Made by a program: the position numbers and the translations under genes
The notes under the pieces: generated by a model
The model's database searches: none
The model's input: the letters and a program-made list of their open reading frames with translations, nothing else
What the model was told of the DNA's origin: nothing
Part shown: positions 3,042 to 57,852 of the stretch, piece by piece
Position numbering within the stretch: the stretch's first letter is position 1
Layout: the number at the start of each line of letters is the position of its first letter
Source: a virus
Lineage: Duplodnaviria > Caudoviricetes
Reading direction: 5' to 3' (one strand)
IMG/VR virus record: IMGVR_UViG_3300048996_000065
Location: 1,460-65,459 of that record
DNA length: 64,000 nucleotides

Positions 3042-3075
3042 CCGCCATTATAAGGCGGTGAACTCTAATCGGCTA
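3042..3075 (-). promoter_or_regulatory. Putative sigma70-type promoter with the -10 box inside an inverted repeat
   Basis: Minus strand TAGCCG-17 nt-TATAAT; TATAAT is flanked by CCGCC/GGCGG. Confidence 0.4.
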
Positions 3076-3306
3076 ATCTTCAAATTTTGGGACCTTGCCG
3101 CCTTTGGCAAAATCGGTCCAGCCGATTGAATGGGGGGTGTTGGATGCGAGACCTCCAATGGCTTTCTTCATGACGCGCTTTGGAGCACGACGGGAATAGC
3201 CTGACACCTGTTTCACCCCCCCAGAACTGGGACCGAAGCCAGCCTTTGAAGGAAAAGTGAAGTTTCCGTACTTTGGGCCATTGCCTGTTTTCTTGAAACC
3301 TTTCAT
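3073..3306 (-). CDS. Small basic virion protein with AxGG motifs
   Basis: Likely start MKGFKKTG at 3306, directly after the upstream stop; contains KKAIGGL and FAKGGKV. Confidence 0.65.
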   Translation of the reverse strand: MKGFKKTGNGPKYGNFTFPSKAGFGPSSGGVKQVSGYSRRAPKRVMKKAIGGLASNTPHSIGWTDFAKGGKVPKFED

Positions 3307-3307
3307 A

Positions 3308-3589
3308 TCATGACCCCGCCACGCCGCCTTGCTGCGACACAGAGAATACGTCAGTGGGCGCCATGCCCGTGGCCCTAACCGCTCGCGTACCTTGAGAGAA
3401 GATACCGAACCCAGAGGTAAGGGTGATGGTCCCGAAACGTGGAGTGATCGACAGATCAAACACATTGTCGGCGGTGAATTCAACTGCCCCAGCGCCATCA
3501 AGCCAGACGCCACCGGGGAACCCGGCATAAGTATCAACAGGGACCCATGGTGTGGTCCCCGTGACACCCGTAATTCTTACGGGACGCAT
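3308..3589 (-). CDS. Small virion structural protein
   Basis: 93 aa beta-rich ORF tightly packed in the head operon. Confidence 0.55.
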   Translation of the reverse strand: MRPVRITGVTGTTPWVPVDTYAGFPGGVWLDGAGAVEFTADNVFDLSITPRFGTITLTSGFGIFSQGTRAVRATGMAPTDVFSVSQQGGVAGS

Positions 3590-7644: not shown

Positions 7645-8106
7645 TTAGTCGAGATACGCTTTCACTTTGAGCGGATCGCCTCGGTATCTACCCAGCAGAT
7701 CCAGATCACGGAAAACGATGAAGATCGCAAACTCGCGGTCGTTAGTACCCGGAATCGGTAAACGCCACCGATCCCCGCCGTACTTCGTCACGCGCACGAA
7801 CTCTCCCGGTTCACACCAATCTCCTTCTTTCCAAGATTCCAGGGTGTCCTGGTTCTTGAAAGCGGTGTCGCCGAGAGCAAGAACTTTAGCAACCTGCGTG
7901 CTCCACTGATCCGTCTCTTGAGCATCGTCAGGAATGATGATACCGCCGTCAGACATTTTCTTTGACGTGCGGAGCTGAACAAGAACCCGGTCGCCAAACG
8001 GCTCGAACTCCGGGTCTATTGCAGGGAAGGCTGCCGCCAGGGCTGCCGCATACGCGGCACTAACCTCTTGGGCGGGGAGGCTTTTCAATCGGGTTTGGTT
8101 GCTCAT
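7645..8106 (-). CDS. groES: Co-chaperonin GroES-like protein
   Basis: PFGDRVLVQ...GGIIIPD...KVLALG...WCEPGEFV..TKYGG. Confidence 0.85.
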   Translation of the reverse strand: MSNQTRLKSLPAQEVSAAYAAALAAAFPAIDPEFEPFGDRVLVQLRTSKKMSDGGIIIPDDAQETDQWSTQVAKVLALGDTAFKNQDTLESWKEGDWCEPGEFVRVTKYGGDRWRLPIPGTNDREFAIFIVFRDLDLLGRYRGDPLKVKAYLD

Positions 8107-8320: not shown

Positions 8321-8479
8321 TTAGCACTTACCCTTTCCGCCGCGCATTCCCTTTCCGCTTGCCACTCTTCCGCCTCCCTTGAATTTCTTCGCGCTTCCCG
8401 CGTTGCTCTGACCCGGTCCCTTGGTCTGGCTCTTGCTTCCCGTCGCCAGCTGGTATCTCTGTCGTGTCGCTTCGCTCAT
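8321..8479 (-). CDS. Small basic protein with GG motif, overlapping the acidic ORF
   Basis: MSEATRQRYQLATG...KKFKGGGRV; GAGG RBS upstream of ATG 8479. Confidence 0.55.
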   Translation of the reverse strand: MSEATRQRYQLATGSKSQTKGPGQSNAGSAKKFKGGGRVASGKGMRGGKGKC

Positions 8480-8741
8480 CGGTTTCGTCCTCGGTGGTTT
8501 CGTCGTCATCAGTTTCATCTGTGTCGACATCGGTTTCATCTTCGTCATCATCGTCATCATCCGGCAGAAGATTGGCACCGTCGGGATTCAAACCAGTTGC
8601 TGGGAATCCCGCTACCTTCAAATCCTCGAGCCAAGACTTCCCATCCCAGACCCTTCGCCACACGGGCGAATGTCCGTCGGGTGAAAGCCATTCCATCCCC
8701 TTCGCGGGGTTTGTCGGTTCGATCAAACTTTTCTGACGCAT
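8328..8741 (-). CDS. Acidic hypothetical protein
   Basis: GGGAG RBS; Asp/Glu/Thr tract. Confidence 0.55.
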   Translation of the reverse strand: MRQKSLIEPTNPAKGMEWLSPDGHSPVWRRVWDGKSWLEDLKVAGFPATGLNPDGANLLPDDDDDDEDETDVDTDETDDDETTEDETDERSDTTEIPAGDGKQEPDQGTGSEQRGKREEIQGRRKSGKRKGNARRKG

Positions 8742-15359: not shown

Positions 15360-15692
15360 CTACGTGCTGGCTAATTCCCTGAGCAACTCCGCATAGCATC
15401 GCGGCTTATAGCTCGACTCGTAAAGATAGAATTGCGGGCAAAGCCTGTACAGAATCCGTTGAAACTCGATGCCATGCCCTCCCTTGCCTCTTAAGCCATG
15501 AGCCAACTCGTGCGCAACATAGTACTCAACGAATCCCGACGGCGGATCTTTGAATATCCAATCGGGCAGGGTGATGCGATTCGTACGAAAACTATAACGA
15601 CCGCGTTTGACCGGCTTGACGATAATCTCGGGAATCTTACTGCGTATCTTCGCACGCTTGTAGATCATCCGAGCTATTTCATCGGGATTCAT
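15360..15692 (-). CDS. Zincin-type metalloprotease-like protein (SprT/YgjP-like)
   Basis: YYVAHELAH (HExxH) followed by GHG.EF; ATGA-coupled start at 15692. Confidence 0.7.
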   Translation of the reverse strand: MNPDEIARMIYKRAKIRSKIPEIIVKPVKRGRYSFRTNRITLPDWIFKDPPSGFVEYYVAHELAHGLRGKGGHGIEFQRILYRLCPQFYLYESSYKPRCYAELLRELAST

Positions 15693-16015
15693 GCAACGTC
15701 GGTAGGATCTTTCGGCTTCATGCCGTCTGTATTCACCGTCCACAAGTTGCCCGCGTTTGCGATGGCCGCTAGCTGACGGGTGGTTTGCGCCAGCAGCGAT
15801 AGACTGGCGTCTATGTTGATATCGCCCCAGCCGTAAATGTTCAATCGCCCCGTCTTCGAATCACGAATGATGCAAACGGCTTGATCGATCGTTACTCCTT
15901 TCACCGGCGGAGTCTCGACCTCGCTCGCCAGCTTACGCATCATCTCAGGGATACGACGTGCGTTCGACTTATACAGCGTCTTAACACTGGCAAGCTTCGG
16001 CTTATCGTCACTCAT
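15689..16015 (-). CDS. Hypothetical protein
   Basis: Coupled ORF starting MSDDKP. Confidence 0.55.
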   Translation of the reverse strand: MSDDKPKLASVKTLYKSNARRIPEMMRKLASEVETPPVKGVTIDQAVCIIRDSKTGRLNIYGWGDINIDASLSLLAQTTRQLAAIANAGNLWTVNTDGMKPKDPTDVA

Positions 16016-16646: not shown

Positions 16647-16872
16647 GGCATTCCCCGTTTCGGTGATAGATGCAAATGCCATCGCCATGCGGCGTGTCGC
16701 GTTGGAAGTAGCGGCAATATGCGACGGTCATATCTGCGGGCTCGTGCGGTGTCGTGTGCATCACCCCGCGCATATCCGTCCAGCCGTACGTGTAACGTTC
16801 TTTGAATCTGTAACGGATGTTGCCCGTCTCAAAGTCGCCCGTGCTCAATTCCTTCATCAGCTTATCGGTCAT
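16630..16872 (-). CDS. Small protein containing an MCP C-terminal fragment
   Basis: GDFETGNIRYRFKERYTYGWTDMR vs MCP GDFNTDSMRYKATERYIPGWTDPR (14/24 identical); ATGA-coupled to NADAR; GGAG RBS. Confidence 0.7.
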   Translation of the reverse strand: MTDKLMKELSTGDFETGNIRYRFKERYTYGWTDMRGVMHTTPHEPADMTVAYCRYFQRDTPHGDGICIYHRNGECREETP

Positions 16873-17312
16873 TGCCGTGTCTCCCGCCAAGCGTTGTTGT
16901 CCTGTAGCTCCAAGCGCAGCTTCATCAGCAGTTTGCCCAAGTGGTTCTCGCCGACGCCTTTGCACACGCCCCAATACACGTCGTTCCATACGTTGCCCTC
17001 GACTAGCTCCGCACCCCCCGTGTTGATGAGCGCATCGCGAAAGGGATTGATCGCAAATTTCTTGCGCAGCAAATCCTCCATCACATTCAGCTTAATGCCC
17101 TCCCACTCCGGTCGCATTGGTACACGCTTGCCCAGCTGCTTGGCGTACGCCGACGTTGGAGCGCAGCGTATCTTCTCGCGCTTGCGCAAGTTAGATGTCT
17201 TCGCAGCCTGATACGCGTGCTCAACGCTCGGATACACCCAGCCATCGTACTTGATCGGCACCATCGCGAAGTTGCTAAGAAACGCGTACTTCCCCCGAAA
17301 GCTCGTGATCAC
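16869..17312 (-). CDS. NADAR family (YbiA-like) ADP-ribose/N-glycosidase hydrolase
   Basis: FLSNF, YPSVEHAYQAAK, LVEGN.WND.YWG, GENHLGKLLM. Confidence 0.9.
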   Translation of the reverse strand: MITSFRGKYAFLSNFAMVPIKYDGWVYPSVEHAYQAAKTSNLRKREKIRCAPTSAYAKQLGKRVPMRPEWEGIKLNVMEDLLRKKFAINPFRDALINTGGAELVEGNVWNDVYWGVCKGVGENHLGKLLMKLRLELQDNNAWRETRQ

Positions 17313-40160: not shown

Positions 40161-40600
40161 AAACCAAACGCATTAGCCGTGAGCAAGCGCTAATGGAGAT
40201 GGCGATTTCCGCTTCAAGACGCTCAACCTGTCAACGACGCGATGTAGGGGCGTTGATTGCAATCGACGGGCGTCCCGTGGTGACCGGGTATTCGGGAGCA
40301 CCCTCTAAGATGATCGATTGTTTAAAAGGCGGATGCATCCTCGGACCCGACGGTGGTTGTATCAGAACCGTGCATGCCGAAGCAAACGCTATCGTGTTCG
40401 CAGCTCGCAAGGGAATTGCGTGCGAGGGAGGAACGCTATACACCACCCTTAGTCCTTGCCCCGATTGCGCTAACATGATCATCAATGCGGGCATCACTCG
40501 AGTGTGGTATCTGGAACCCTACCGTATAGTAGATGGTATAACCATCCTCCGTGAGATGGGGATTGGTTGCGATCACCTGTTGTTCGATTTCGATCTATGA
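40157..40600 (+). CDS. dcd: dCMP deaminase
   Basis: RSTC.RR.VGA, TGY.G, HAEANAI, PCPDC. Confidence 0.9.
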   Translation: MKTKRISREQALMEMAISASRRSTCQRRDVGALIAIDGRPVVTGYSGAPSKMIDCLKGGCILGPDGGCIRTVHAEANAIVFAARKGIACEGGTLYTTLSPCPDCANMIINAGITRVWYLEPYRIVDGITILREMGIGCDHLLFDFDL

Positions 40601-43137
40601 ATCGCAATCCTAAGTGCACGGATTGCAAATTTCACGAAACGGCTAAAACCGTGTGTCTTCCGGGGGAAGGACCGAAGAACGCACGAGTGATGATTATCGG
40701 AGAGTCCCCCGGCTTCGATGATGACCATACTGGAAGACCCTTTCAGGGTAAAGGCGGACGCTTGCTCAAGGAGGAGCTGGTCCGAGCTGGAATTGCACCG
40801 GAAGAGTGCTATATAACGCACACCGTTAAATGCGCTCCGCCCGGTGACTCGGAACCGAAGGCGCCAGAACTCAAAGCATGCCGCAAATACCTGGAATCCG
40901 AGCTGGCCGAGGTGAAACCCGAATACGTGATAGCGCTCGGCCGCATTGCATCGAAAGCGGTTCTAAAGGAAACGAAGATAACCGAGGTACACGGACAGAT
41001 CAAGGAATTTAAAGATCTCCTGGGATCTTTCAAGGGCATGGCAGCATTCAGCCCCAACTTTTGTTTACGTGATCCGTCGAAGCTCCCGATTCTCCGTAAA
41101 GATCTGGGGCGAGTCATCGGAGAAGTGCTCGGTAAGAAAAAAGAAGTACGTGCGCCGTTTAAATGGCGTGAGGTCAACGACGAAAATATCCATGAATTCT
41201 ATCGAGCGTTGATCAATTGCGAGTGGTTCTCATTCGACTTAGAAACGTCTGGGCTCGACTGGTTCAATCCCAAGGGTTGGATTACATGCTTGAACATGTC
41301 GTTCGATCGGGACGGTGGAACCTGGGTTCTGCCGATGACTATGCCATTCTCGCCATATGCATTTTTCGATAGACAGAAATTCATCATTCGCAAAATTGCG
41401 AGACTGCTTAAGGACGGTAAGAAGAAAGGATGCGCACATAACGGCAAGTTCGATAATCACTGGCTCTGGCGTATCTTCGGGGTCCTATTTCCGCTTCACT
41501 TCGATACCATGCTGGCGTCGCATTGCATCGATGAGAATCGAGCTCACGCCCTGGACTCGCTTGCTACGTCCTACCTCGATGCCCCGTACTACGATATCCC
41601 GCTGCATTGGAAGCAGGGGCAATGGAAACCCGGCGAAGGAACGCGCGCAAACGTGCGTACGGTTTACCGTTACGGCGCTAAAGACGCCTATTACACGCTT
41701 ACGATGCGTCCGATCATGGAGAAGGAGCTTCGTACCGATCCGCAGGTGTTCAGACTTTTCCGACGTTTGGTGATGCGCGCCGCCCGTGCTTTCCATCGTA
41801 TCGAAGACAACGGATTGTATGTGATCCGCAAACGCTTCGTGGATACCCGGAAGCAGGTGGTGATCGATCGAGATGCGGCATTGGTTGATTTAAATTGCAT
41901 GGCCGGCAAGGTTGATGTCCGATCCGGGGTGAAGCGCAAGATCAATTGGAATTCACCGCAACAGGTAGCAAAGCTTTTATTTGAGAAGCTAAAGCTGCCC
42001 GTGATCGAACGTACGGAAACCGGAGCACCCTCCACCGGCGAGAACACGCTGATTGCATTGAAGAATAAGCACCCGGTTGCGAATGCGTTGGTAAAATATC
42101 GGGAGTTAGATAAATTTCTGGGAACCTACCTGGATGGTTGGAAATCGCTGATGCATAAGGATCGAGTGTACTTCAGTTATAAGTTGCACGGAACCGTAAC
42201 AGGGAGATATTCGTCTAGGTTGCATCAGACACCACGAGATAAGCGCATCCGTACAACGGTGTCCGCTCCGGACGGGTGGACATTCGTTCAGGGTGACTTC
42301 TCGCAAGCTGAGTTGCGCATCGCTGCAATTCTATCCGGCGACCTAGAAATGTTACGATGCTTCGCCGAAGGTATCGACATCCATTGGAAAACCCTGATGT
42401 ATGTCATTCAATCCGGGGGCGTAGGGGAGTATGTCAAGCATGTCAAAAAGACCGCTCGTGTACTTGCGGGCAAGAAAGTCGGGTTTAACGATGCTATTGA
42501 GCTTGTGCTCCAAGCCGGACATAAGCGTTGCATTGAGATCTGGGACGGATGGAAGGAAGCTCGTAAAAAAGCGAAAGGCATCAACTTCGGCTTCGTGTAC
42601 GGCATGCGAGAAAATAAGTTCATCGAGTACGCAAAGGCTAATTACGACTTCGAGCCCACTCAGGAAGAAGCTCGATTGATTCGACGTGCCTACTTCCAGC
42701 TGTATCGCGGATTGGAGCCGTGGCATGAGAAAATGCGCAAGCTTGTACGGCTCGACGGCTCGGTTAGGAGCTTAAGCGGGCGACTGCGACGATTGCCCGG
42801 GGTTAGCTCCTCGGACCGTTCGCTACGCTCCGAATGCGAACGGCAAGCGATAAATAGCCCCGTACAGGGGTATATCGGCGACCATAAAGCGATGGCGCTA
42901 GTAGAGTTGGCCGATAAGCTGGATTGGAATCGTTCGCGTCTGGTCGGTGAGGTACACGATTCCCTGCTGTTCTGGGTACGTACCGAGCTGCTAGCCGAGG
43001 AGCTGCCGAAGATCGCCGCAATCATGCGAGACCCCGAATTGCTCAAAGAATTCAAAATCGATCTCCCCGTGAAAATCGAGCCGGAACTGGAAGTAGGTGA
43101 CTGGGGTGCGGGTAAGGAGTGGAAAATGGCAGCGTGA
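40597..43137 (+). CDS. polA: Family A DNA polymerase with N-terminal family-4 UDG-like domain
   Basis: UDG: CTDC, GESPG, GRPF.G.GG, VKC.PP, KAC; exonuclease: FDLETSG, HNGKFD, YGAKDA; polymerase: DFSQAELR, KAKGINFG..YG, VHDS. Confidence 0.95.
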   Translation: MNRNPKCTDCKFHETAKTVCLPGEGPKNARVMIIGESPGFDDDHTGRPFQGKGGRLLKEELVRAGIAPEECYITHTVKCAPPGDSEPKAPELKACRKYLESELAEVKPEYVIALGRIASKAVLKETKITEVHGQIKEFKDLLGSFKGMAAFSPNFCLRDPSKLPILRKDLGRVIGEVLGKKKEVRAPFKWREVNDENIHEFYRALINCEWFSFDLETSGLDWFNPKGWITCLNMSFDRDGGTWVLPMTMPFSPYAFFDRQKFIIRKIARLLKDGKKKGCAHNGKFDNHWLWRIFGVLFPLHFDTMLASHCIDENRAHALDSLATSYLDAPYYDIPLHWKQGQWKPGEGTRANVRTVYRYGAKDAYYTLTMRPIMEKELRTDPQVFRLFRRLVMRAARAFHRIEDNGLYVIRKRFVDTRKQVVIDRDAALVDLNCMAGKVDVRSGVKRKINWNSPQQVAKLLFEKLKLPVIERTETGAPSTGENTLIALKNKHPVANALVKYRELDKFLGTYLDGWKSLMHKDRVYFSYKLHGTVTGRYSSRLHQTPRDKRIRTTVSAPDGWTFVQGDFSQAELRIAAILSGDLEMLRCFAEGIDIHWKTLMYVIQSGGVGEYVKHVKKTARVLAGKKVGFNDAIELVLQAGHKRCIEIWDGWKEARKKAKGINFGFVYGMRENKFIEYAKANYDFEPTQEEARLIRRAYFQLYRGLEPWHEKMRKLVRLDGSVRSLSGRLRRLPGVSSSDRSLRSECERQAINSPVQGYIGDHKAMALVELADKLDWNRSRLVGEVHDSLLFWVRTELLAEELPKIAAIMRDPELLKEFKIDLPVKIEPELEVGDWGAGKEWKMAA

Positions 43138-48756: not shown

Positions 48757-49362
48757 TTATTCGACGGTTAGGTTGGTAACCGCGTTCGGACGCGGGTTCA
48801 CCGTGATTCCCACCGTTCTTGAAGTATTCGATGCGGCCTTCGTAGTTTTCTGAACCGTCGGACTCGCCGCCGACTCCACGTCGAACGAATTCACCGCCCA
48901 CACCTGGAAGAAATAGGTGGTGTTTGGGTTCAATGCATTCACGACGTAGCTCGTGGGGGTAGGCAACGGCGGGGGCAGCACATCAGTCGTTTGAGTGAGC
49001 TGAGCAGCCGATAGACCGTAACGAATCCGAATGGCTTTGGCATTCGAGTAATCGGATCCATCCGTGTTCTTGGTTGGGTTACTCCAGCTTAGAGTTGCTT
49101 TCAAATCACTGGCCCAGCTGCAAACCATCACGAAAGTCTTGGTGGCAGAGATAGCCGGAAGCGTTTCGCTACCGCTAGCCGTCTTCGTACCTGTCCACCC
49201 GTCGGATGCAACGCAAGCCGTGGCCACGGGATTCGTGCTCCACGTAAGCTTAGGTACAACCGATTCCACCCCGGTTACGGTCTCGGCCGTAAACGTCAAT
49301 GTCTGAGCTGACAGCAGCGGAGCCGCCAGCAGCAACAATACAGCAATCGCAATTCTTTTCAT
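48757..49362 (-). CDS. Exported Ig-like/fibronectin type III protein
   Basis: Signal peptide MKRIAIAVLLLLAAPLLSA; LSWSNPTKNTDGS...L.PNTTYFFQVWAVN...ES. Confidence 0.8.
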   Translation of the reverse strand: MKRIAIAVLLLLAAPLLSAQTLTFTAETVTGVESVVPKLTWSTNPVATACVASDGWTGTKTASGSETLPAISATKTFVMVCSWASDLKATLSWSNPTKNTDGSDYSNAKAIRIRYGLSAAQLTQTTDVLPPPLPTPTSYVVNALNPNTTYFFQVWAVNSFDVESAASPTVQKTTKAASNTSRTVGITVNPRPNAVTNLTVE

Positions 49363-49373
49363 CTTAGTCACCT

Positions 49374-50030
49374 CTAGGATCCTTCGTCATCGTTGATAAC
49401 ATCATCAGGGTCAACACCTTTGGATTTAATTTGTTCTCTAATCTTTTCTTGTCGATCGATTAAAGCATCGATCTCCGCGTTGGTCATTTTCTCATTTTTA
49501 TGTCCGGGAGTACCCGCATGATCTAACTCATTTTGCAACTTTTTCATTTTTCGAACCAGCGCGATAACTCCCGTTACTTTACCCCCTTTGGCGAAGGTAG
49601 CAACTTTCTCTTCGGCGACTTCCAGCTCAGCCGCATTATCATCCGTCTGTGAGCTGCCACGTTTCATCAATTCCATTTGACGCTTCAAACGTTTCGCCAA
49701 GGCGTTGTCACCGGAAGCTAACGCTTCTTCCACTTTCTTGGCAAGAGCTTTCAAAGCCATCATGCCGGTTTCGACCTTTCCGCCTTCCTTGTACCCCTTA
49801 CGGATCTTACCGCCCTTAGACGCTAGGCGCGTACGACTTCCGATACGGCCAATGGTACGACGCAACCCGTCACCGGTATTCGCCAAGGTTTGATCGGCTT
49901 CACCCAGGGGGTTTACGATCGGCCGCTTCATGGGACCAGCTGGACGCACCGAACGGGCTTTGGCGATCGGCGCTGGAGCAGCGCGACGAACCGCATTGGC
50001 AATAGCGCCAGATACTCGGGATTTAAACAT
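49374..50030 (-). CDS. Putative internal virion protein with three xxGGK(I/V) motifs
   Basis: ASKGGKI, YKEGGKV, FAKGGKV separate short helical segments. Confidence 0.6.
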   Translation of the reverse strand: MFKSRVSGAIANAVRRAAPAPIAKARSVRPAGPMKRPIVNPLGEADQTLANTGDGLRRTIGRIGSRTRLASKGGKIRKGYKEGGKVETGMMALKALAKKVEEALASGDNALAKRLKRQMELMKRGSSQTDDNAAELEVAEEKVATFAKGGKVTGVIALVRKMKKLQNELDHAGTPGHKNEKMTNAEIDALIDRQEKIREQIKSKGVDPDDVINDDEGS

Positions 50031-50031
50031 C

Positions 50032-52212
50032 TTACTTTCCTCTTGCCTTGTCGGTGATAGCTTTCTGAATCTTAGCCGGGTCGTCGCTTTCGTCTAGTCC
50101 CATGTCGTTCAGCAAGTCTTGAACTTCTATCTCGCCTTCGATCATGTCCTCGTAAGCTTCTTTAGCTTCCTCGAGGTTTAAGGTACCGTCGTCATTCCAA
50201 AGATCGGACCAATCTTTGTGAGTGATATCGATATCATGAGATTTGAAAAGCTCGACTAACCTTTGCGTAATCCCAGATACCTTACCGCCCTTCGCTTTCT
50301 TCGTGCCCTTCATAAGCATTTCCTGAAACTCTTCGTTGGACATCAACCCGTGTCCGTTGACCGGGGCGCGATAGTTCCTAGTGTTCGTTTCCTGGAAAAC
50401 GTTCTGGTTCACTACGCCCTGGTCCACGACCGGGGTTATTTTACGCGCATCCTCGGGAGTAGGAAATAACTTCTGATGCAATCGAAGAAGAGCATCGGCA
50501 ATTAAACTCTCGTCGTCGCTCAAAACCTGTTGACGAATATTATTGGCTTCCTCGGGTGCCAGAACGCCAGCTCGCTGAGCCTCGTTCGTCGAGTATAGCA
50601 CTTCCTCCAGTTCTTCGCCGATTTGGTGATTCTTCTGTTTCAGGGTGGAATCGGGGTTGATAGAGATCATCTTGAGCAATCCCTTCAACCCGGATACCTT
50701 ACCGCCCTCGGCATAGTCCCCGTAACCGGGCTTCATGTCAGTATCCGGACCCACCGCGTAAACATCCGATCGATAAGAATACCGCATATCAGGATCTAAC
50801 TCTCGAGATGCGCGAGGACCAGCATCATAAGCATTACGAGCTACCAACAATTGTCCGCGCTTTAACTGATGAGCTTTCTTATCAAACTCAAATTTATCAA
50901 AGGTTCCGTCTTCCTTTACAGGAAATTCGATCACTTCGGATGGATAAACGTGAAATGGGGCGATAGCTCCCACTTGATTGGATTCTAGATCGGGGTTTCC
51001 GTAACTAGCGGCAACATCCGGAGAATTCGACATGAAGGTAGAATACCCATCGCGAGATTTTCCCATCAAGGATTCTTCCGAGATCCCGGATTTAGAATCT
51101 CCAATCAAACCTCGAAACAGCCTTAAAGCCCCTTTGACTTTTCCTCCTTCGGCTAAATCATCACCATAAAGCCAGTCATCATAATCCGAAGGGTGAATTG
51201 GAGTGTCCGACATCTCTTTCCATAAATTCTCACGTTTCATACCGAGTTTCTTAAGAACCCAGTCATGAACTCCTTCTCGCGCATCCCAGACATAGCTATT
51301 TCCTTGCTTATCTACCATCATCCTTAAACTTGGAATCTCATCCCCCGCGAACCGAAGAACCTCGGATTGATCTGGATTTTTCAACACGGTAATGGGAACT
51401 GGTTTTCCATCCTTGCGGACATTCATGTTGAAATCTAAAATCTCAGATCCTTTGTCGATTTGCGAAGCTACTAGATTTTTCATCTCCTCAGGATCAATTT
51501 TTAATGCTGACCGGATAGCCTTGACTTTCCCGCCCTCACCCCAACCTCCATACTCGGGCTCGTCGCTGAGCATGCCCAGAGCGCCACCGGCGAGTGTCCC
51601 CATCCCGTAGTTGGAGAACGATGGCTCAACCGTTGGTAAGAAAAATTCAGCCGGGCTTGCTACTGCCTTCTTCATGTAATGCTTGGCAAGATTCAATGCA
51701 CCTTTGCCCGCGTCGACTTTGGCTTTCCCAGGGATTGGAAGCTGTGCCAGCATTTGCCCGCCGGCATTCGCGGCGTTCTGACGAAAGCCCCGGGGTGGGG
51801 CGAGATCCATTGCCTCATTTACCCCCTCATGCGTAGCGTCGGCCACGATCTGCATTTTCTCTGACCAAGCCGGACCGTTCCCCATGATATTAGGAAGCGA
51901 CAACGTGTCGGTGACCAACCCAGGATACACGGTATTAGGGTTCGGCTTACCCTGACGACGGTTTTCTTCGAGATTCCAGGCTCGAGTTAGATTGGCAAGA
52001 ATGGGATTGACCACTTCTCCGTCATCGTCGATACCCATGTATTGGGAAGCAAAGCCACTACCCAGCCGAGACAGCGTATCGTCGATAGTGTCATAATTCT
52101 CTTCATCGAGCCCCGGCACTGCATGCGACAGGGATTTAACTGCTGCGCGCAACAACTGCAGCGACTTATTCTTCCGTCGCTTCTTCCGAGGCTTTTCGTC
52201 AGAGTCGGCCAT
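50032..52212 (-). CDS. Modular (polyvalent-type) internal virion protein with ART-like cassette
   Basis: WGEGGKV, LAEGGKV, YAEGGKV, KAKGGKV separate four domains; LFRG...FMSNSPDVAASY in the second. Confidence 0.65.
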   Translation of the reverse strand: MADSDEKPRKKRRKNKSLQLLRAAVKSLSHAVPGLDEENYDTIDDTLSRLGSGFASQYMGIDDDGEVVNPILANLTRAWNLEENRRQGKPNPNTVYPGLVTDTLSLPNIMGNGPAWSEKMQIVADATHEGVNEAMDLAPPRGFRQNAANAGGQMLAQLPIPGKAKVDAGKGALNLAKHYMKKAVASPAEFFLPTVEPSFSNYGMGTLAGGALGMLSDEPEYGGWGEGGKVKAIRSALKIDPEEMKNLVASQIDKGSEILDFNMNVRKDGKPVPITVLKNPDQSEVLRFAGDEIPSLRMMVDKQGNSYVWDAREGVHDWVLKKLGMKRENLWKEMSDTPIHPSDYDDWLYGDDLAEGGKVKGALRLFRGLIGDSKSGISEESLMGKSRDGYSTFMSNSPDVAASYGNPDLESNQVGAIAPFHVYPSEVIEFPVKEDGTFDKFEFDKKAHQLKRGQLLVARNAYDAGPRASRELDPDMRYSYRSDVYAVGPDTDMKPGYGDYAEGGKVSGLKGLLKMISINPDSTLKQKNHQIGEELEEVLYSTNEAQRAGVLAPEEANNIRQQVLSDDESLIADALLRLHQKLFPTPEDARKITPVVDQGVVNQNVFQETNTRNYRAPVNGHGLMSNEEFQEMLMKGTKKAKGGKVSGITQRLVELFKSHDIDITHKDWSDLWNDDGTLNLEEAKEAYEDMIEGEIEVQDLLNDMGLDESDDPAKIQKAITDKARGK

Positions 52213-52215
52213 ATC

Positions 52216-55200
52216 TCACCCTAACCGTGCTTGGAGGGATGATAGAGCGTCGTCGCTACCGAAGAGAGTGCTATCGATCACGCTCTCCGCGATACGACGC
52301 CAACCGGGGGTACGCACCAATCCGCCGCGTGCCTTCTTCACCGGCTCCTCGTCGTCTTTCATATAGTCCTTGATGAACGGGAATGCCGCCCCAGCCACCC
52401 CGCCTAGGATTGCCGCTTTACCCGCCCGCTTCTTGCGAGCCGCGACACGACCGAATTTGGAAGTCAAATTTGCTTCGATCTTTTTGATTTCCTTCGGATC
52501 GGACGTTTTCAGGATACGCAGAATTTCAGCGGCTTCCTTCGGCTTGATCGGTTCTTGACGACGCAGCCAGCTGACTGCCCAAGACGTTGGGCTCCAGATG
52601 TTGAATGGAACCCGCTTGGCCGTTCGGCGCATCACGTTGTCCTGAGCGTCCCGTGTGCTCATCAGCTTTGTACGCCCTCGGGAGATCGTAGACTTCGAGT
52701 CCTCGTAGATGCGTTGCTCCAAATCGAGCGCAGCTTTGAAGATTTCGAACTCCTTAGGTTTATCGAATAGAAGCTGAAGACGTTTCACGTTGTCGGGAGT
52801 ATCGACGATCTTAGCCGCCGAGTTCTGCCGACTACCCGTCTTGCCGATTTGCTCGAATAGGTTTTGAGCAACACCCGTACGCAGCGCATCCTTCTCGCTG
52901 AAATTCATATCCTTGATATGCTCCGAGATCTCCTTCGGATCGAGTTTCATGAAATCCTCGCGACCGAAGCGCAAAGCGTCACGTAGCTCCAGACCGCCCG
53001 AATGTGTATCCCGTGCAGTCTTGTAAGCCGAGACCCCCGACTTATCCGTGGTCAATGCATCCATCTCGTCACGGAGAGCGTTTCGAATCGAACGCATGCG
53101 TCGACCCTTACCGGTAGGCTTATAAGCGCCACCCTGGGTTTCCTCGGCATTGATCAAATCATCCAAGTCTTGCTTAACCTGATCGAGAAATTCCAGGGAT
53201 GGGCGCGTAACCATGCCCGTGGCATCCGCCTTGCCGATCGTAGAACCCGGCTTATCTCGAATGGACTTAGTAGCAGATTTAACTGCTTTAGCCCCGCTGG
53301 GAGTATTCATCAGCTGCATGAGCTGTTCAGATCTCAGGTTGGGAAATTGCTTGTACAGCTCCCTGTAAGCATCCCCAGAACCCTCACGCATTTGCTCGAG
53401 TAATTTCTTCTCGGTGTCGAAGTAATCATCAGGCTTGAGTCCCTTATTGACCTGGTCGACTACTCGATCACGCGAACCTCGCTGACGTTCGACGGTTTCA
53501 CGATACAGCTGGCGGGTCTCGGGGTTCTCAGGGTTCATTGCCTGCTCGCCTAATGCGCGCATCTCGATTCCACCCATATCCAACCCATTGACGGGAACAC
53601 CCATGCGTTGAGCTTGAGTAACGAGCTTTGCCCATTCCGTAGGGTTCAGACCCTCGTTTTCGAGCGCTCGCAATACCCGGCTTTCCGCTTTCGTCGATTT
53701 ATGACCAGGTACGCGGTCCGCTAGGAAGTGCGATAGCTTCGCCCCGTAACGACCGCCACCGGCTCCTGCGGCCCCGTATCCGAGCGCTGCAAGCATCCCC
53801 GGGTCACTTCCGGCGACATCGACAACGTCGGCAGCCGGCATGTTAATGGCCGGTTCTTCCTGCGGAGAAGGCTCTTGCGGAATTTCCTGTGGAGCTTCCT
53901 GTGGAGCTTGCAAAGGTGATCCAGCCTTTTCCATCGCCATCGAATAGCGACTTAGCACCTTCTCGTAAGGAACACCGGGCTTGGCGTATACCACCTGACC
54001 GTCGGGCATCGTGAACGGCGTGCGTCCAGAAGAATCGATTTCTTCGTCAGCCCCAACCATACCGCCTTCGGCAAATCCCTCTTCCTCTTCGCCAGCAGGA
54101 ACCAAATCCTCGTAATACAGGGGTGGCTTGCTAGGATCCGGCTTGTACTGTTGCGGATCCTGCTTCGGCGCAGCAGACTTAGCAAGAAGCGGATCACCCT
54201 TCAATCCAGTTCCGTACTTATCGTCGTCACGAGTCCAGATGTCGTCTACGTTGAATCGGATTTGGCCATCGAAGCCTTCCAGGGTTCCATGTTCGCGGAA
54301 GTAATCAGCCGCTCCAACCTTAGCCTCGTAAGCACGGGTCATCTGTTCGATCAAATGTCGCAGACGATTCGCATTGGTCCTTTCGTCCAACGCGGGATTG
54401 TACACGCGGCTGATCAAACGTTCGCCTTCGTCTTTCGTAAACTGGGAACCGAGGATGGGGCGTAACGACCGTTGAACCGTATACTCCACCATTTCTTGGG
54501 TATCGGCTGATTCGGGCATAGTCACGTCTTGGACGGTTTTACCGATCCAAGGAATACGACTGATAATGCCCACCAGCGGTCCGGTCAGATTATCAGGTCT
54601 TGGTGCCTTAGGATCAGCCGGATCCAAGCGTTCTACCGCCGTGTGCAAATCCTGGAGCCCCTTCGCAGCATCCGATGCACCCGTCTGGATGAACTCTACA
54701 TAATCCTTCGAGTATTCTCGATCGACCGCTTGGGTGGCAGCATCGCGCTTCTTCTGTTGCGGTGAAGGCTGTCCAACCCGACGACCCAAGGTCTTCATAG
54801 CCTCGACGGAGAGTTTCGTGTCCTGCTCCTGACGCATTTTCATCAGCTGTAGCTGAGCGGCCAAGTACTCATCGTCGACGTTACTCAGAGCCAAATCAAG
54901 GTCCAGAACCCCTTTATCTCGGCCCTCGTTCCATTCCCGTTGACGACGACGAGGCTCGATAAGGGCTCCGGGAACCCGGCCCAGAGCTTCTCCAAAGTGA
55001 CCCGTGCGTGTAGGAGCCCCGAGTGCCGCTGATGCCGCCAGCCACTGCTCGGAGTTACCGTACTTAGCTGCCGCGAGATGCTTGCGAGCATTGCGCAACG
55101 CCATACGCGCTGAGTCAGCATTGGATTTGACTTTGTTCAGGTATGCATCGGTTCCGGCACTCGACGGATTGTCGACCGTGCGCCCCAGGATTTTCCTGGC

Positions 55201-55302
55201 GTATGCCAAAGCCTCCGGAGTCGTGTATTGTTCTTGCATCCCAACTAAAGCGAGCGGAGAACGTCCGCCGCTGTAGTCGTCATCATCGTATTCATCGGCC
55301 AT
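52216..55302 (-). CDS. Large internal virion / DNA ejection protein
   Basis: 1028 aa, helical, ILGSQFTKDEGERL segment; FAEGGMV and KARGGLV motifs. Confidence 0.65.
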   Translation of the reverse strand: MADEYDDDDYSGGRSPLALVGMQEQYTTPEALAYARKILGRTVDNPSSAGTDAYLNKVKSNADSARMALRNARKHLAAAKYGNSEQWLAASAALGAPTRTGHFGEALGRVPGALIEPRRRQREWNEGRDKGVLDLDLALSNVDDEYLAAQLQLMKMRQEQDTKLSVEAMKTLGRRVGQPSPQQKKRDAATQAVDREYSKDYVEFIQTGASDAAKGLQDLHTAVERLDPADPKAPRPDNLTGPLVGIISRIPWIGKTVQDVTMPESADTQEMVEYTVQRSLRPILGSQFTKDEGERLISRVYNPALDERTNANRLRHLIEQMTRAYEAKVGAADYFREHGTLEGFDGQIRFNVDDIWTRDDDKYGTGLKGDPLLAKSAAPKQDPQQYKPDPSKPPLYYEDLVPAGEEEEGFAEGGMVGADEEIDSSGRTPFTMPDGQVVYAKPGVPYEKVLSRYSMAMEKAGSPLQAPQEAPQEIPQEPSPQEEPAINMPAADVVDVAGSDPGMLAALGYGAAGAGGGRYGAKLSHFLADRVPGHKSTKAESRVLRALENEGLNPTEWAKLVTQAQRMGVPVNGLDMGGIEMRALGEQAMNPENPETRQLYRETVERQRGSRDRVVDQVNKGLKPDDYFDTEKKLLEQMREGSGDAYRELYKQFPNLRSEQLMQLMNTPSGAKAVKSATKSIRDKPGSTIGKADATGMVTRPSLEFLDQVKQDLDDLINAEETQGGAYKPTGKGRRMRSIRNALRDEMDALTTDKSGVSAYKTARDTHSGGLELRDALRFGREDFMKLDPKEISEHIKDMNFSEKDALRTGVAQNLFEQIGKTGSRQNSAAKIVDTPDNVKRLQLLFDKPKEFEIFKAALDLEQRIYEDSKSTISRGRTKLMSTRDAQDNVMRRTAKRVPFNIWSPTSWAVSWLRRQEPIKPKEAAEILRILKTSDPKEIKKIEANLTSKFGRVAARKKRAGKAAILGGVAGAAFPFIKDYMKDDEEPVKKARGGLVRTPGWRRIAESVIDSTLFGSDDALSSLQARLG

Positions 55303-56365
55303 TTCTTGTACTCCGATAGATTTCCAACGCGCCTCTTCGAGGTGCGGGCAATCGCTTTATACTTCCGCCTCGAGCTTTTCCTTGACCCTGGATTCCTTGC
55401 CACAGGGAGAAGATAGATCCGAGTTGCTCCAATCCGCTAGGACCGTAAACCTCCGCTGGCCCCGTATCCGTGGTCTGAGTAGACGACGAGTAAGGGATGC
55501 CACGAATAATCGAGGATAGCCAGTCGGTGGTGTTTCGATCGAAATTCGTTTGATTCTGGAAGTCACCATAGGCAAGATCCAGATTTCGTTGATTCTGGTT
55601 CTGTTGATCCTTGCCCGCCGTTGCTAGTTGCGTGATATCGCCCGCGTTCATTCGTTGCTGAGCCTCGGCGAGCGCGCCAAGCCCCTGACCGGCTTGCAAA
55701 CGATTGCCGGCATCACTCGCGGCCAGGTTACCGACAGTCTGCCCCGCTTGGAGCTGACGACTCATATCCTGGTTGTAAATGTTGGCACCGGATTCGTATG
55801 CACCAGCCAGAGCCGCATTGGCTTGGCTCTGAACGCCTTCCGTGATATCCCTCAGCCCTCGACCTACCGCGCGCTGTTGACCGGCAGACCCGTATGTACC
55901 CGCTTTGATGAAATTGCTGTTGATCGCCGGCATCAGCTTTTCTTGCAAAGCTCGTTGAGCCAAATCCGTCGATCGATCAATCACGTTTTTCGTATACGGG
56001 TTCATGTACTGTTCGACTGAATCCGTATATGACCCACCCGCTTTATTCAGGAATGGTTGAGCTTGCTGAAGCGCTCCCGGACCCGAGGCGACACTATTGA
56101 ACGCACCCTGAGCGGCATTCATCCCGGGTTTCCATGCTCCCGCAGTACTGCCCGCCTGATTCTGCGCCGCTTGTTGCAGGGGTGTGAATCCCGCAATACG
56201 TGGACCCCCATACTGCTGGTAGGGTTCGGCAGCCACGGTATTAGCGCGAGCAACCAACCCCTGCGTGTAGTCGTTCAGCCAGGACGGGACGTTGGTTGTG
56301 CTAGAGCCATACGTCGTGACGCTGGCTGGCGGACGTCCTTCAAATAAGAAATCTGTGATACTCAC
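55292..56365 (-). CDS. Internal virion / DNA pilot protein
   Basis: PYQQYGGPRIAGFTPLQQ, YMNPYT..V, Gln/Ala-rich; KARGGSI. Confidence 0.7.
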   Translation of the reverse strand: MSITDFLFEGRPPASVTTYGSSTTNVPSWLNDYTQGLVARANTVAAEPYQQYGGPRIAGFTPLQQAAQNQAGSTAGAWKPGMNAAQGAFNSVASGPGALQQAQPFLNKAGGSYTDSVEQYMNPYTKNVIDRSTDLAQRALQEKLMPAINSNFIKAGTYGSAGQQRAVGRGLRDITEGVQSQANAALAGAYESGANIYNQDMSRQLQAGQTVGNLAASDAGNRLQAGQGLGALAEAQQRMNAGDITQLATAGKDQQNQNQRNLDLAYGDFQNQTNFDRNTTDWLSSIIRGIPYSSSTQTTDTGPAEVYGPSGLEQLGSIFSLWQGIQGQGKARGGSIKRLPAPRRGALEIYRSTRNGR

Positions 56366-57852
56366 AGGTATTCCTCCGGATTCTTTGCACTAGAACTGAA
56401 CTTTCCCTTGGATAAAGCTTTTCCCTTATGCATACGTAATTTCTTACGTAACGCATCTAAGCGACGAGCCCCCTCATCGGTACTTCCGTCGCCTAGCAAT
56501 GCCACGGTCTCGGCATCGAAGACATATTCACCGTCAGAAAGGCGGGCAGGAATATCATCACTCCTGCCCGTGCCTGGACCCCGGACGAGACGACTAAGCG
56601 CGCCTCCTCCTTGACCATAGCCAAGATCGATGCCTCCGCCTCTCGCAGCGCCGACAGGACGGGGCTCTCGGTCATAGAACTGAAACTCAGGACCCGCTCC
56701 ATACGAGTAGTAATCAGAAATGTCTCCGGTTCTGGATCGACCCAAATAATCGACCGGAGCCATCGAATTGGTTCCTTGGTTGAAACCATCGGGAGGAGCG
56801 GGAGGACCACCGCCACCAGCACCACCTCCACCCATAAGAGTTCCGATAGCACCTACGCCACCCGCAATATCTTTCCAATTGCCCATATCGGAACCGTAGG
56901 CAAGAGTTCGATCCCACAGACTCGGCTCCGGCGGCAAGGACGGCTCAGGGATTCCCAGCTCCTCCGCCGTGGGAGCGTTCGGATCTTTATACGTATCTCG
57001 GTACTCCTTCACCTCGTTCGGGTTCTGGTAGCTGTCTACCCCATGAGCAACTTGACCCAAGGCTCCTAAACCAGCGGCAGCATCGGCGGCTGATAGACCG
57101 CTTCCAAGACCAGAAGCGGTAACGGTGACTCCCTCAATTCCTGCGGGTATTGCCGAACCCGCTCCACCCGCGACGTTAGCAACGGTGTTAAGAGCCCCAC
57201 CAGCCTCTCCGGCGGTTCCTAAAGCTCCGCCGGCATCTGCCGCATTACCAGCAGCCCCAGCAGCCCCTAAACCGGCCGTGGCAATGGCCATCAACGGGAT
57301 CTTGTTCTCTTTCACCGCATCCTGGATGTAATGGTGATTGTCTTTGTAAGTATTCTTTAAGTGTTCTTTCGAGAACAGCTTTTCACCGTTCCTCAGACGA
57401 TCCACTCGATCTTTGATATGGTAAGTGGGCGATAACGCTTTGTGAGCGGAATAGCCAGCCGAGAGACCATGTAAGGGTGTGCCGACTCCAGCAATACCCT
57501 CCCCATGCTTGATATCCTCGATGTCCTGTTTATTGATCGTCCAGGGTGTTGCACTTTTCACGATGGACTTACCAATGCTTTTCACGGCCTTCTTCAGCTT
57601 CGACATGAAGCCGTACTCGGGAAGACCCGTATGAGGGTTGTACGAAGGCTCTCCCCAGATTTTCTGGAGTTGCTGGAATTCTTCCGGGTTGATATGAATC
57701 AACACGTCGTCTCCCATCCGGCCACGACCGCGTACGGCTTCGGCCGCACGAGCGAGCCCGCCTTCCGCGAATCGAGCCACCGGACGGGGCTCATACACGC
57801 GAACGGTGATTACCTCACCATCTCCAAGATTCGCGCTGCGAATGCTCTTCAT
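56362..57852 (-). CDS. Internal virion protein with two conserved domains following AxGG motifs
   Basis: FAEGGL...GRMGDDVLIHINPEE...NPHTGLPEY and GPGTGRSDDIPARLSDGEYVF. Confidence 0.7.
   Translation of the reverse strand: MKSIRSANLGDGEVITVRVYEPRPVARFAEGGLARAAEAVRGRGRMGDDVLIHINPEEFQQLQKIWGEPSYNPHTGLPEYGFMSKLKKAVKSIGKSIVKSATPWTINKQDIEDIKHGEGIAGVGTPLHGLSAGYSAHKALSPTYHIKDRVDRLRNGEKLFSKEHLKNTYKDNHHYIQDAVKENKIPLMAIATAGLGAAGAAGNAADAGGALGTAGEAGGALNTVANVAGGAGSAIPAGIEGVTVTASGLGSGLSAADAAAGLGALGQVAHGVDSYQNPNEVKEYRDTYKDPNAPTAEELGIPEPSLPPEPSLWDRTLAYGSDMGNWKDIAGGVGAIGTLMGGGGAGGGGPPAPPDGFNQGTNSMAPVDYLGRSRTGDISDYYSYGAGPEFQFYDREPRPVGAARGGGIDLGYGQGGGALSRLVRGPGTGRSDDIPARLSDGEYVFDAETVALLGDGSTDEGARRLDALRKKLRMHKGKALSKGKFSSSAKNPEEYL

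Follow-up and report, generated by a model that had tools for sequence, protein, structure and literature searches.

Polyvalent proteins, cleaved tape measures and a modular phage protein

Polyvalent proteins of phages and conjugative elements combine unrelated domains in one polypeptide, vary in architecture among relatives, and are encoded among late or virion genes or in a conjugation locus (Iyer et al. 2017, PMC5512222). As described in that article, they include an ADP-ribosyltransferase (ART) family, and their processing into separate units has been proposed. Built-in zincin-like MPTase domains, common but not universal, are put forward there as the processing agent. Here a protein of similar design is described from a stretch of 64,000 nucleotides (nt), called the window below, of the IMG/VR virus record IMGVR_UViG_3300048996_000065. 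The record has 65,459 bases with direct terminal repeats and is rated a complete virus. The window, its bases 1460-65459, is nearly the whole genome of a complete 65.5-kb short-tailed phage. Its second late block ends in five tightly packed consecutive genes, encoding 496, 357, 1028, 726, and 218 amino acids (aa). These lie downstream of the adaptor and tail genes and are the ejection-protein block. The fourth, an open reading frame (ORF) at 50032-52212 on the minus strand, encodes a modular, polyvalent-type protein of 726 aa, the parts of which are joined by a recurrent peptide, A-x-G-G-(K)-(V/I).

A similar peptide is found at a known cleavage site. The tape measure protein pb2 of phage T5 matures into pb2* and pb2C by a cut after R1127 (Linares et al. 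2023, PMC10038345). In the translation of T5 AY543070, the surrounding sequence is NSFVPR/AEGGMMYPGV (slash, mapped cut), so that the cut falls directly before AEGG. It splits the enzymatic payload from the rest of the ejected protein. In lambda, gpH is converted into gpH* and gpHC, and about 14 kDa is cut from its glycine-rich C-terminal region; according to PMC12617516, neither the site nor the catalyst is known, nor is the way in which the T5 and lambda tape measures are cleaved. The glycine-rich region of gpH contains FHFATGGF (about residue 734) and GYATGGYV (779). The match of gpH to the junction peptide is a prediction, made from these sequences.

The 726-aa protein consists of a conserved helical N-terminal domain, A, and four unrelated modules, B to E, each of which follows x-[EK]-G-G-K-V. 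All coordinates in this description are on the minus strand. Domain A (residues 1-225; 51538-52212) defines the family and is matched by its hidden Markov model (HMM) in 87 of 168 related proteins. Module B (residues 231-352; 51157-51522) has low GC and is poorly modelled. Module C (residues 360-499; 50716-51135), also of low GC, is modelled with a predicted local distance difference test (pLDDT) score above 90 and has a putative ART-PolyVal-like fold. Module D (residues 507-638; 50299-50694) is helical and is the commonest partner of A. Module E (residues 646-726; 50035-50277) is a small acidic helical domain of low GC. Between motifs, the module lengths are 122 aa (B), 140 aa (C), 132 aa (D), and 81 aa (E). 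The motifs read WGEGGKVKA, LAEGGKVKG, YAEGGKVSG, and KAKGGKVSG, with GGKV at residues 227, 356, 503, and 642. The four junction peptides are GEGGKV at residues 225-230 (51523-51540), AEGGKV at residues 354-359 (51136-51153), AEGGKV at residues 501-506 (50695-50712), and AKGGKV at residues 640-645 (50278-50295).

The gene downstream, at 49374-50030 on the minus strand, encodes the 218-aa protein, which has the same design with three copies of the motif. These are SKGGKI (49803-49820), KEGGKV (49773-49790), and FAKGGKV, the AKGGKV of which is at 49575-49592. Its tail module (49374-49568) has a GC of 0.40, at the 0.5th percentile.

The AlphaFold2 model of the 726-aa protein, based on a 51-row alignment, has a mean pLDDT of 72.8. 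Residues 10-160 of domain A are all helical at pLDDT 85-96, residues 360-495 of module C reach 92-97, D and E are at about 75-90, and B is poor. Four segments fall below pLDDT 50: residues 220-226, 334-356, 499-507, and 636-645. All four junctions are located in or beside these segments, and the flanking domains are at pLDDT 75-97. Domain A modelled alone has a mean pLDDT of 83.5. By hydropathy, it contains a glycine-rich, moderately hydrophobic helix at residues 199-217. The KD19 hydropathy upstream of the site is 1.82 in T5 (about 70 aa) and 1.53 in lambda (about 30 aa), and the maximum in the window protein is 0.62, at residue 207.

Searches of the whole 726-aa protein, the 218-aa protein, and each module against Pfam, PHROG, and NCBIfam assigned no family, with the sole exception of a sub-threshold GatB_Yqey match on module E. 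No match was found by tblastn for the 726-aa protein or domain A in 50,697 phage records. For the fold of domain A, the best Foldseek E is 1.1, and the VIA wide search gives a best Z of 5.4 over generic helical bundles. This lack of a structural match does not show a new fold. A lead to a "P22 gp16 domain" for domain A was dropped, as its ESM Atlas score of 0.84 is below the usable level. Module D found nothing in ESM Atlas. The family and fold searches leave modules B, D, and E without an assignable function.

With its five segments that have separate sets of homologues and stand in permuted orders among relatives, the 726-aa protein fits the concept of polyvalent proteins. It differs from the MPTase-bearing ones in that no peptidase family is matched by the protein or its parts at E up to 10. 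The main text of PMC5512222 does not contain the words "linker" or "glycine"; that text therefore gives no description of domain A or of the A-x-G-G junction peptide. Literature searches that paired the motif with phage found no published description of it among the papers listed.

Exchange of modules at the junction peptide

A word-indexed protein search returned 31 proteins including the query's own record; the remaining 30, of 422-1259 aa, align over only 19-51% of the query. When 1.84 billion representatives were searched exhaustively, 277 proteins were returned at E up to 0.001. The five parts A to E were each given an HMM and mapped on the set of 168 related proteins (144,419 residues). 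The BLAST segments begin or end at the motif, and in 13 relatives a segment starts at query residue 500 or 501. The parts are seen in many arrangements, among them A-D, A-D-E, A-D-E-B, A-E-D-B, A-C-D, A-B-D, ART-C-A, C...A...E, and A-X-C-D-E, where X is a long unassigned segment. Module B is C-terminal in the relatives P0003/4/5/7/8/13 and is repeated seven times in tandem in P0088.

The motif is concentrated at the edges of the mapped parts. Of 18 complete copies of D, 11 have it no more than 20 aa ahead of them (1.1 expected); for complete copies of E, the figure is 8 of 10 (0.7 expected). At most 20 aa after the end of C it is found in 25 of 81 cases (2.7 expected), and within the same distance after the end of A in 13 of 34 (2.3 expected).

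A syntenic comparison is provided by L014, a 21-kb piece of a 66-kb metagenomic contig. Its gene order is as in the window, with proteins of 829, 370, 1054, 404, and 275 aa and, after them, a fibronectin type III (FN3) protein that has a signal peptide. The alignment of the 404-aa orthologue covers residues 11-238 and 500-645 of the query. This orthologue is A-D only, without B, C, and E, and it ends six residues past its last motif. The 726-aa protein of the window thus equals the L014 orthologue with B and C added between two motif copies and E added after motif 4. The 218-aa protein and its 275-aa orthologue in L014 are homologous until about 12 aa past the third motif, beyond which their tails are unrelated.

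The base composition agrees with this comparison. The GC of B, C, and E is 0.423, 0.464, and 0.457, corresponding to the 0.6th, 2.6th, and 3.5th percentiles of windows of the same size. Domain A is at 0.553, module D at 0.508, and the three upstream genes at about 0.552, and the mean of the window is 0.531. The low-GC modules are precisely those that are extra or replaced relative to L014. Among relatives, modules are permuted, dropped, or replaced at the motif, and L014 lacks the low-GC B, C, and E. These facts support that the modules are exchangeable units bounded by the motif.

Much of this had been anticipated by the original prediction, which was made from the letters of the DNA. It described the 726-aa ORF as an N-terminal region plus four unrelated domains after xxGGKV, and the 218-aa ORF as a product of the same design; the ORFs, motifs, and module lengths bear out both descriptions. 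The AT-richness that it noticed by eye is real, with a GC of 0.436 at 50760-51520 and 0.398 at 49380-49570, both at the 0.5th percentile. The proposed exchange of cassettes stands too: BLAST and HMM boundaries fall on the motif, and the modules occur in other orders and sets in relatives. The alignment of orthologues, named there as the check, shows that L014 is not collinear with invariant content, having A-D only in the one protein and a changed tail after the third motif in the other.

Another small module is recurrent. An N-terminal piece of about 45 aa (MPSKSKKQA...), with a junction motif at residues 46-55, is found in P0024, P0027, P0031, P0102, P0108, P0110, P0128, P0160, and P0163.

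Module C is the only module with a putative family. PF18760 (ART-PolyVal) is matched by 9 of 18 aligned module C homologues, which are 36-54% identical, with a best E of 2.6e-8. The top 14 rows of the Foldseek search of PDB are the ART domains of cholix, diphtheria toxin, or exotoxin A, at E 0.078-0.23. The BFVD matches are PolyVal ARTs at E 2.5e-3 and weaker. The profile of module C matched none of the PDB sequences at E up to 10. In the alignment, (F/Y)-R-G, S/T-x-S/N-P, and E-F-P are conserved, together with an invariant D in Y-D-x-G-P; the corresponding residues in the window protein are 366, 395, 429, and 462. The catalytic residues of the ART-PolyVal clade are given as H-Y-D (PMC5512222). 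Based on the homologues and the model, module C could be considered ART-PolyVal-like, and it might act as an effector. By its description, T4 Alt can be set beside it: Alt is an ADP-ribosyltransferase that the particle carries and that is injected together with the DNA (PMC5512222). Alt differs in being a single-domain protein of the R-S-E clade, outside any modular array. The earlier proposal that the array delivers several small effectors therefore gains one candidate in module C, but not in B, D, or E, for which no function could be assigned.

Possible roles of the junction peptide

The strict motif, A.GG.[VI], is found 244 times in the 168 related proteins, compared with a mean of 10.15 in shuffled sequences. 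Its occurrence is linked with domain A. It is seen in 80 of the 87 proteins with domain A (2.84 per 1000 aa) and in 26 of the 81 proteins without it (0.73 per 1000 aa). Every protein longer than 2100 aa that has module C only shows a count of zero; these large polyvalent proteins are in this respect unlike the 726-aa protein. Ten further loci, taken from collections of viruses and metagenomes, have the motif only in genes near the one for domain A. When the window is translated in six frames, there are 19 matches to A.GG.[VIA], 9 of which are in frame within the five ejection genes (2.2% of the residues). All five genes of the block carry the motif.

A logo of 229 distinct sites was made with positions counted from the alanine, which is 100% by the search definition. 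The preceding residue is K, Y, F, R, or M in 85%. E or K follows the alanine in 62%, then come the two glycines, K in 54% (+4), and V in 81% or I in 19% (+5). Farther downstream, leucines recur at +8, +11/12, and +15 after the alanine. In the model of the 726-aa protein, predicted helices begin just after three of the four junctions. The junction linker peptide in this phage is [K/Y/F/R]-A-[E/K]-G-G-K-[V/I]. Compared with this logo, R/AEGGMM of T5 pb2 has the same [basic/aromatic]-A-[E/K]-G-G core. The two cases differ in other respects. T5 pb2 is the ruler protein of a long tail and has one site, whereas the peptide occurs here 13 times in five proteins of a short-tailed phage. The last position is M in T5 and V/I here.

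The original prediction saw in the motif a joint for DNA recombination. On such a view, the DNA coding for the motif would serve as microhomology for cassette exchange and be conserved for this reason. The DNA words on which this was based are exact. GATACCTTACCGCCCT at 50276 and 50693 is an identity of 16 nt, and CTTACCGCCCTT at 49806, which also occurs at 50281, is one of 12 nt. The insertions relative to L014, moreover, fall between motif copies. Among the six GGKV copies, however, five codon sets are in use. By a hand calculation from codon usage, two GGKV sites share all four codons with a probability of about 0.009; 1 fully identical pair was seen among 15 pairs, close to the roughly 0.14 expected. 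The DNA shared by the junctions is thus no more than the shared peptide explains, and the identity stops at the codons of that peptide. Because the codons differ between copies, the conservation is in the protein and not in the DNA. The motif is also conserved in the 1028-aa protein, where no exchange occurs. A role as a DNA joint is very improbable, and this part of the earlier interpretation was not upheld, although the motif-bounded exchange itself was.

The motif might instead be a passive hinge. Its Gly-Gly would be a flexible spacer that allows independent folding, or unfolding through the tail, and the motif would mark junctions since in-frame fusions survive only in linkers. The low model confidence of the junctions and the flexibility permitted by two glycines are consistent with this, and some junctions lack the motif. 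But six positions are conserved, not the glycines alone, across proteins of only about 30% identity. The link with domain A, and the absence of the motif from the giant polyvalent proteins with module C, show that it does not accompany multidomain proteins in general. In the 1028-aa protein, the motif is kept at about residues 390-460 in the window and in 7 of 10 scanned loci, where no module is swapped. The varied codons, this fixed place, and the presence of the motif in every protein of the ejection block argue against both a DNA role and a passive hinge, and we consider the hinge improbable.

The reading that we prefer, and regard as evenly poised between right and wrong, is that the motif is a processing site that joins the modules of an ejection polyprotein. 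Domain A would hold the 726-aa protein in the particle or the ejection apparatus. It is followed by an array of slots for small independent modules, the ART-PolyVal-like C among them. The modules are joined by the linker peptide of low model confidence, at which whole modules have been gained, lost, and reordered over evolutionary time. B, C, and E could be considered recent arrivals of lower GC in this phage. The peptide would be a signal for proteolytic processing, cut probably just before the alanine, like T5 pb2. The polyprotein would thereby be split into free modules, either during assembly or once ejected. The processing tag of the earlier interpretation is thus plausible, given the T5 site (R1127/AEGG) and the twin-arginine signals described below.

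The twin-arginine pattern RRx[FILVM]L[KQ], scanned in all collected proteins, gave 12 sites. Ten of them, in six relatives with domain A (P0068, P0091, P0102, P0110, P0118, and P0119), are located 5-15 aa behind GGx[VI], against an expectation of about 0.7, as 5.6% of the residues are that close. These export-signal-like sequences are of the type [ST]RRxxLKG, and each of the 10 is followed by a Gly/Ala-rich hydrophobic run. They lie deep inside proteins of 571-2072 aa. The Pfam model TAT_signal, applied to 30 large A-domain proteins, has internal matches in four, all among the six relatives named, with scores of 24-34 bits (cut-off, 22.7). Twin-arginine signals work at a free N-terminus. The presence of internal ones directly behind the motif is most easily understood if cutting at the motif sets them free.

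Several observations weigh against processing in the phage of the window. Twin-arginine sites next to the motif were found neither in the window nor in 15 other loci, and the relatives that have them are known as proteins only. Between the genes for the portal and the capsid, the searches met no family of head-maturation proteases. The small terminase gene has as its neighbor a 127-aa ORF (15360-15743, minus strand) with weak YgjP-like/SprT-like metallopeptidase matches (Pfam E 2e-4 to 5e-4, below the cut-offs). This ORF was dropped as a conserved protease partner, since it had no match in four other motif-bearing virus records, a set that did not include the record of L014. T5 offers a single mapped site, with M and not V/I at the last position. 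Some junctions have no motif, such as that before module B in P0003/5/8. Among 246 motif copies, 17 are at most 25 aa from the C-terminus, some with conserved basic tails such as ARGGRI(I)SRR. A cut there would release a mere short peptide, and a docking role fits these copies better. The location in the virion is read from gene order. As for module C, the window's own copy has no direct Pfam match, and its best fold matches are the weak PDB and BFVD ones given above.

Such a docking role is a serious rival, though an unlikely one. The peptide would stay uncut and, with the frequent amphipathic helix behind it, would bind a common partner in the particle, such as the capsid interior, the portal, or the tail channel. 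Every protein or module with the peptide would thereby be loaded and later ejected. It would account for the presence of the motif in all five proteins of the ejection module and in a small ORF beside the capsid genes. Positions near termini are also in its favor, namely the copy at about residue 29 in the 496-aa protein, the one close to the C-terminus in the 357-aa protein, and the 17 copies mentioned above. The same applies to the recurrent leucines and the helices predicted just past three of four junctions. Its serious standing follows from the lack of any protease hit, the C-terminal copies, the junctions without the motif, the single T5 case, and the lack of local twin-arginine sites. 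On the other side, the sole experimental datum for the peptide is the cut in T5 pb2. The internal twin-arginine signals right behind the motif are hard to explain without cleavage. The model gives the motif regions low confidence and shows no structured element there.

Returning to processing, a wider form of the reading can be speculated, which we hold only tentatively. A-x-G-G-(K)-(V/I) might be a general coded cut site of the phage proteins that exit the particle along with the DNA, both the tape measures of long-tailed phages and the ejection proteins of short-tailed phages, with either a host enzyme or the protein itself doing the cutting. Modular ejection proteins would then be true polyproteins. 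In some phages, the cut might expose a twin-arginine signal, by which the host Tat system would send the injected module back to the periplasm.

The ejection block, neighboring genes and implications

The second late block (minus strand, 48.7-63.7 kb) contains an SU10-type adaptor (SU10_adaptor, PF24175, E 1e-22) and tail proteins. The 496-aa protein (56362-57852, minus strand) carries RFAEGGLA near its N-terminus (about residue 29; 57751-57768), and its C-terminal segment matches tape measure PHROGs. The 357-aa protein (55292-56365, minus strand) matches phrog_4287, "DNA ejection protein", at E 6.1e-14 and has KARGGSI near its C-terminus (55358-55375). The 1028-aa protein of the ejection module (52216-55302, minus strand; phrog_5880) has FAEGGMV (54055-54072) and KARGGLV (52315-52332). 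The 726-aa gene is flanked by the adaptor and tail genes and the PHROG "DNA ejection protein" at one end, and at its other end the late block comes to a close. From this position, its product may be present in the virion and delivered with the DNA. The last gene of the block (48757-49371, minus strand) encodes a 204-aa protein with an N-terminus resembling a signal peptide and a weak match to fibronectin type III, conserved at the same place in L014.

The C-terminus of the 496-aa protein (56362-56500, minus strand) contains a segment, VRGPGTGRSDDIPARLSDGEYVFDAETV, that matches several tape measure PHROGs. It resembles GGKYEPAGIVHRGEFVFTKEAT of lambda gpH, located after the FATGG motif of gpH, and is common to the Caulobacter phages RW, GB2A, RLK, and KcrB. 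Phage RLK has parts of the 496-aa and 1028-aa proteins in common with the window. It was dropped as a cultured model system because the motif is essentially absent there.

The head and packaging genes are on the minus strand at 1-15 kb and include the small and large terminases and the capsid protein. An 872-aa candidate portal is so labelled from its size and place, and has no family match. A candidate scaffold protein of the same block is highly charged. A GroES-like (Cpn10) protein gene (7645-8106, minus strand) is located between the portal and the scaffold-like genes. Downstream of the portal gene, two frames overlap at 8321-8741 (minus strand): one is a very acidic 137-aa ORF, and the other is an 85-aa ORF with a basic tail end containing KKFKGGGRVASG. 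They may give a frameshift product.

The small basic ORF beside the capsid genes (3073-3567, minus strand) ends in FAKGGKVPKFED and also holds KAIGGLA. A motif copy, FAKGGKV (3091-3108, minus strand), is located 6 codons before its stop. The ORF may encode a further motif-bearing particle protein. Translation probably begins at a later Met, for a product of about 78 aa.

The replication genes on the plus strand include a PrimPol-helicase and DNA polymerase A. The latter, a family A polymerase (40567-43137, plus strand), is fused at its N-terminus with a domain of the uracil-DNA-glycosylase superfamily (PF03167, E 8.6e-28). At 16869-17312 (minus strand), a 147-aa protein with a NADAR domain (PF08719, E 6e-22) is encoded. 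The NADAR family removes ADP-ribose. This protein is noteworthy in a phage that also encodes an ADP-ribosyltransferase-like module.

According to the 2017 proposal, polyvalent proteins are cleaved to give separate effectors, but exact cut sites have been lacking. A conserved peptide at the boundaries gives exact sites that can be tested and a simple rule by which injected cargo can be sought in uncultured phages. In this case, the motif is linked to the defining domain A, the gain of modules is syntenic and has a matching GC anomaly, and the twin-arginine signals add an argument for cleavage. Modules bounded by the motif are a natural plug-in format for module exchange. If functional, the twin-arginine signals behind the motif would represent a new route, in which a module enters with the phage DNA, is cut, and is exported to the periplasm.

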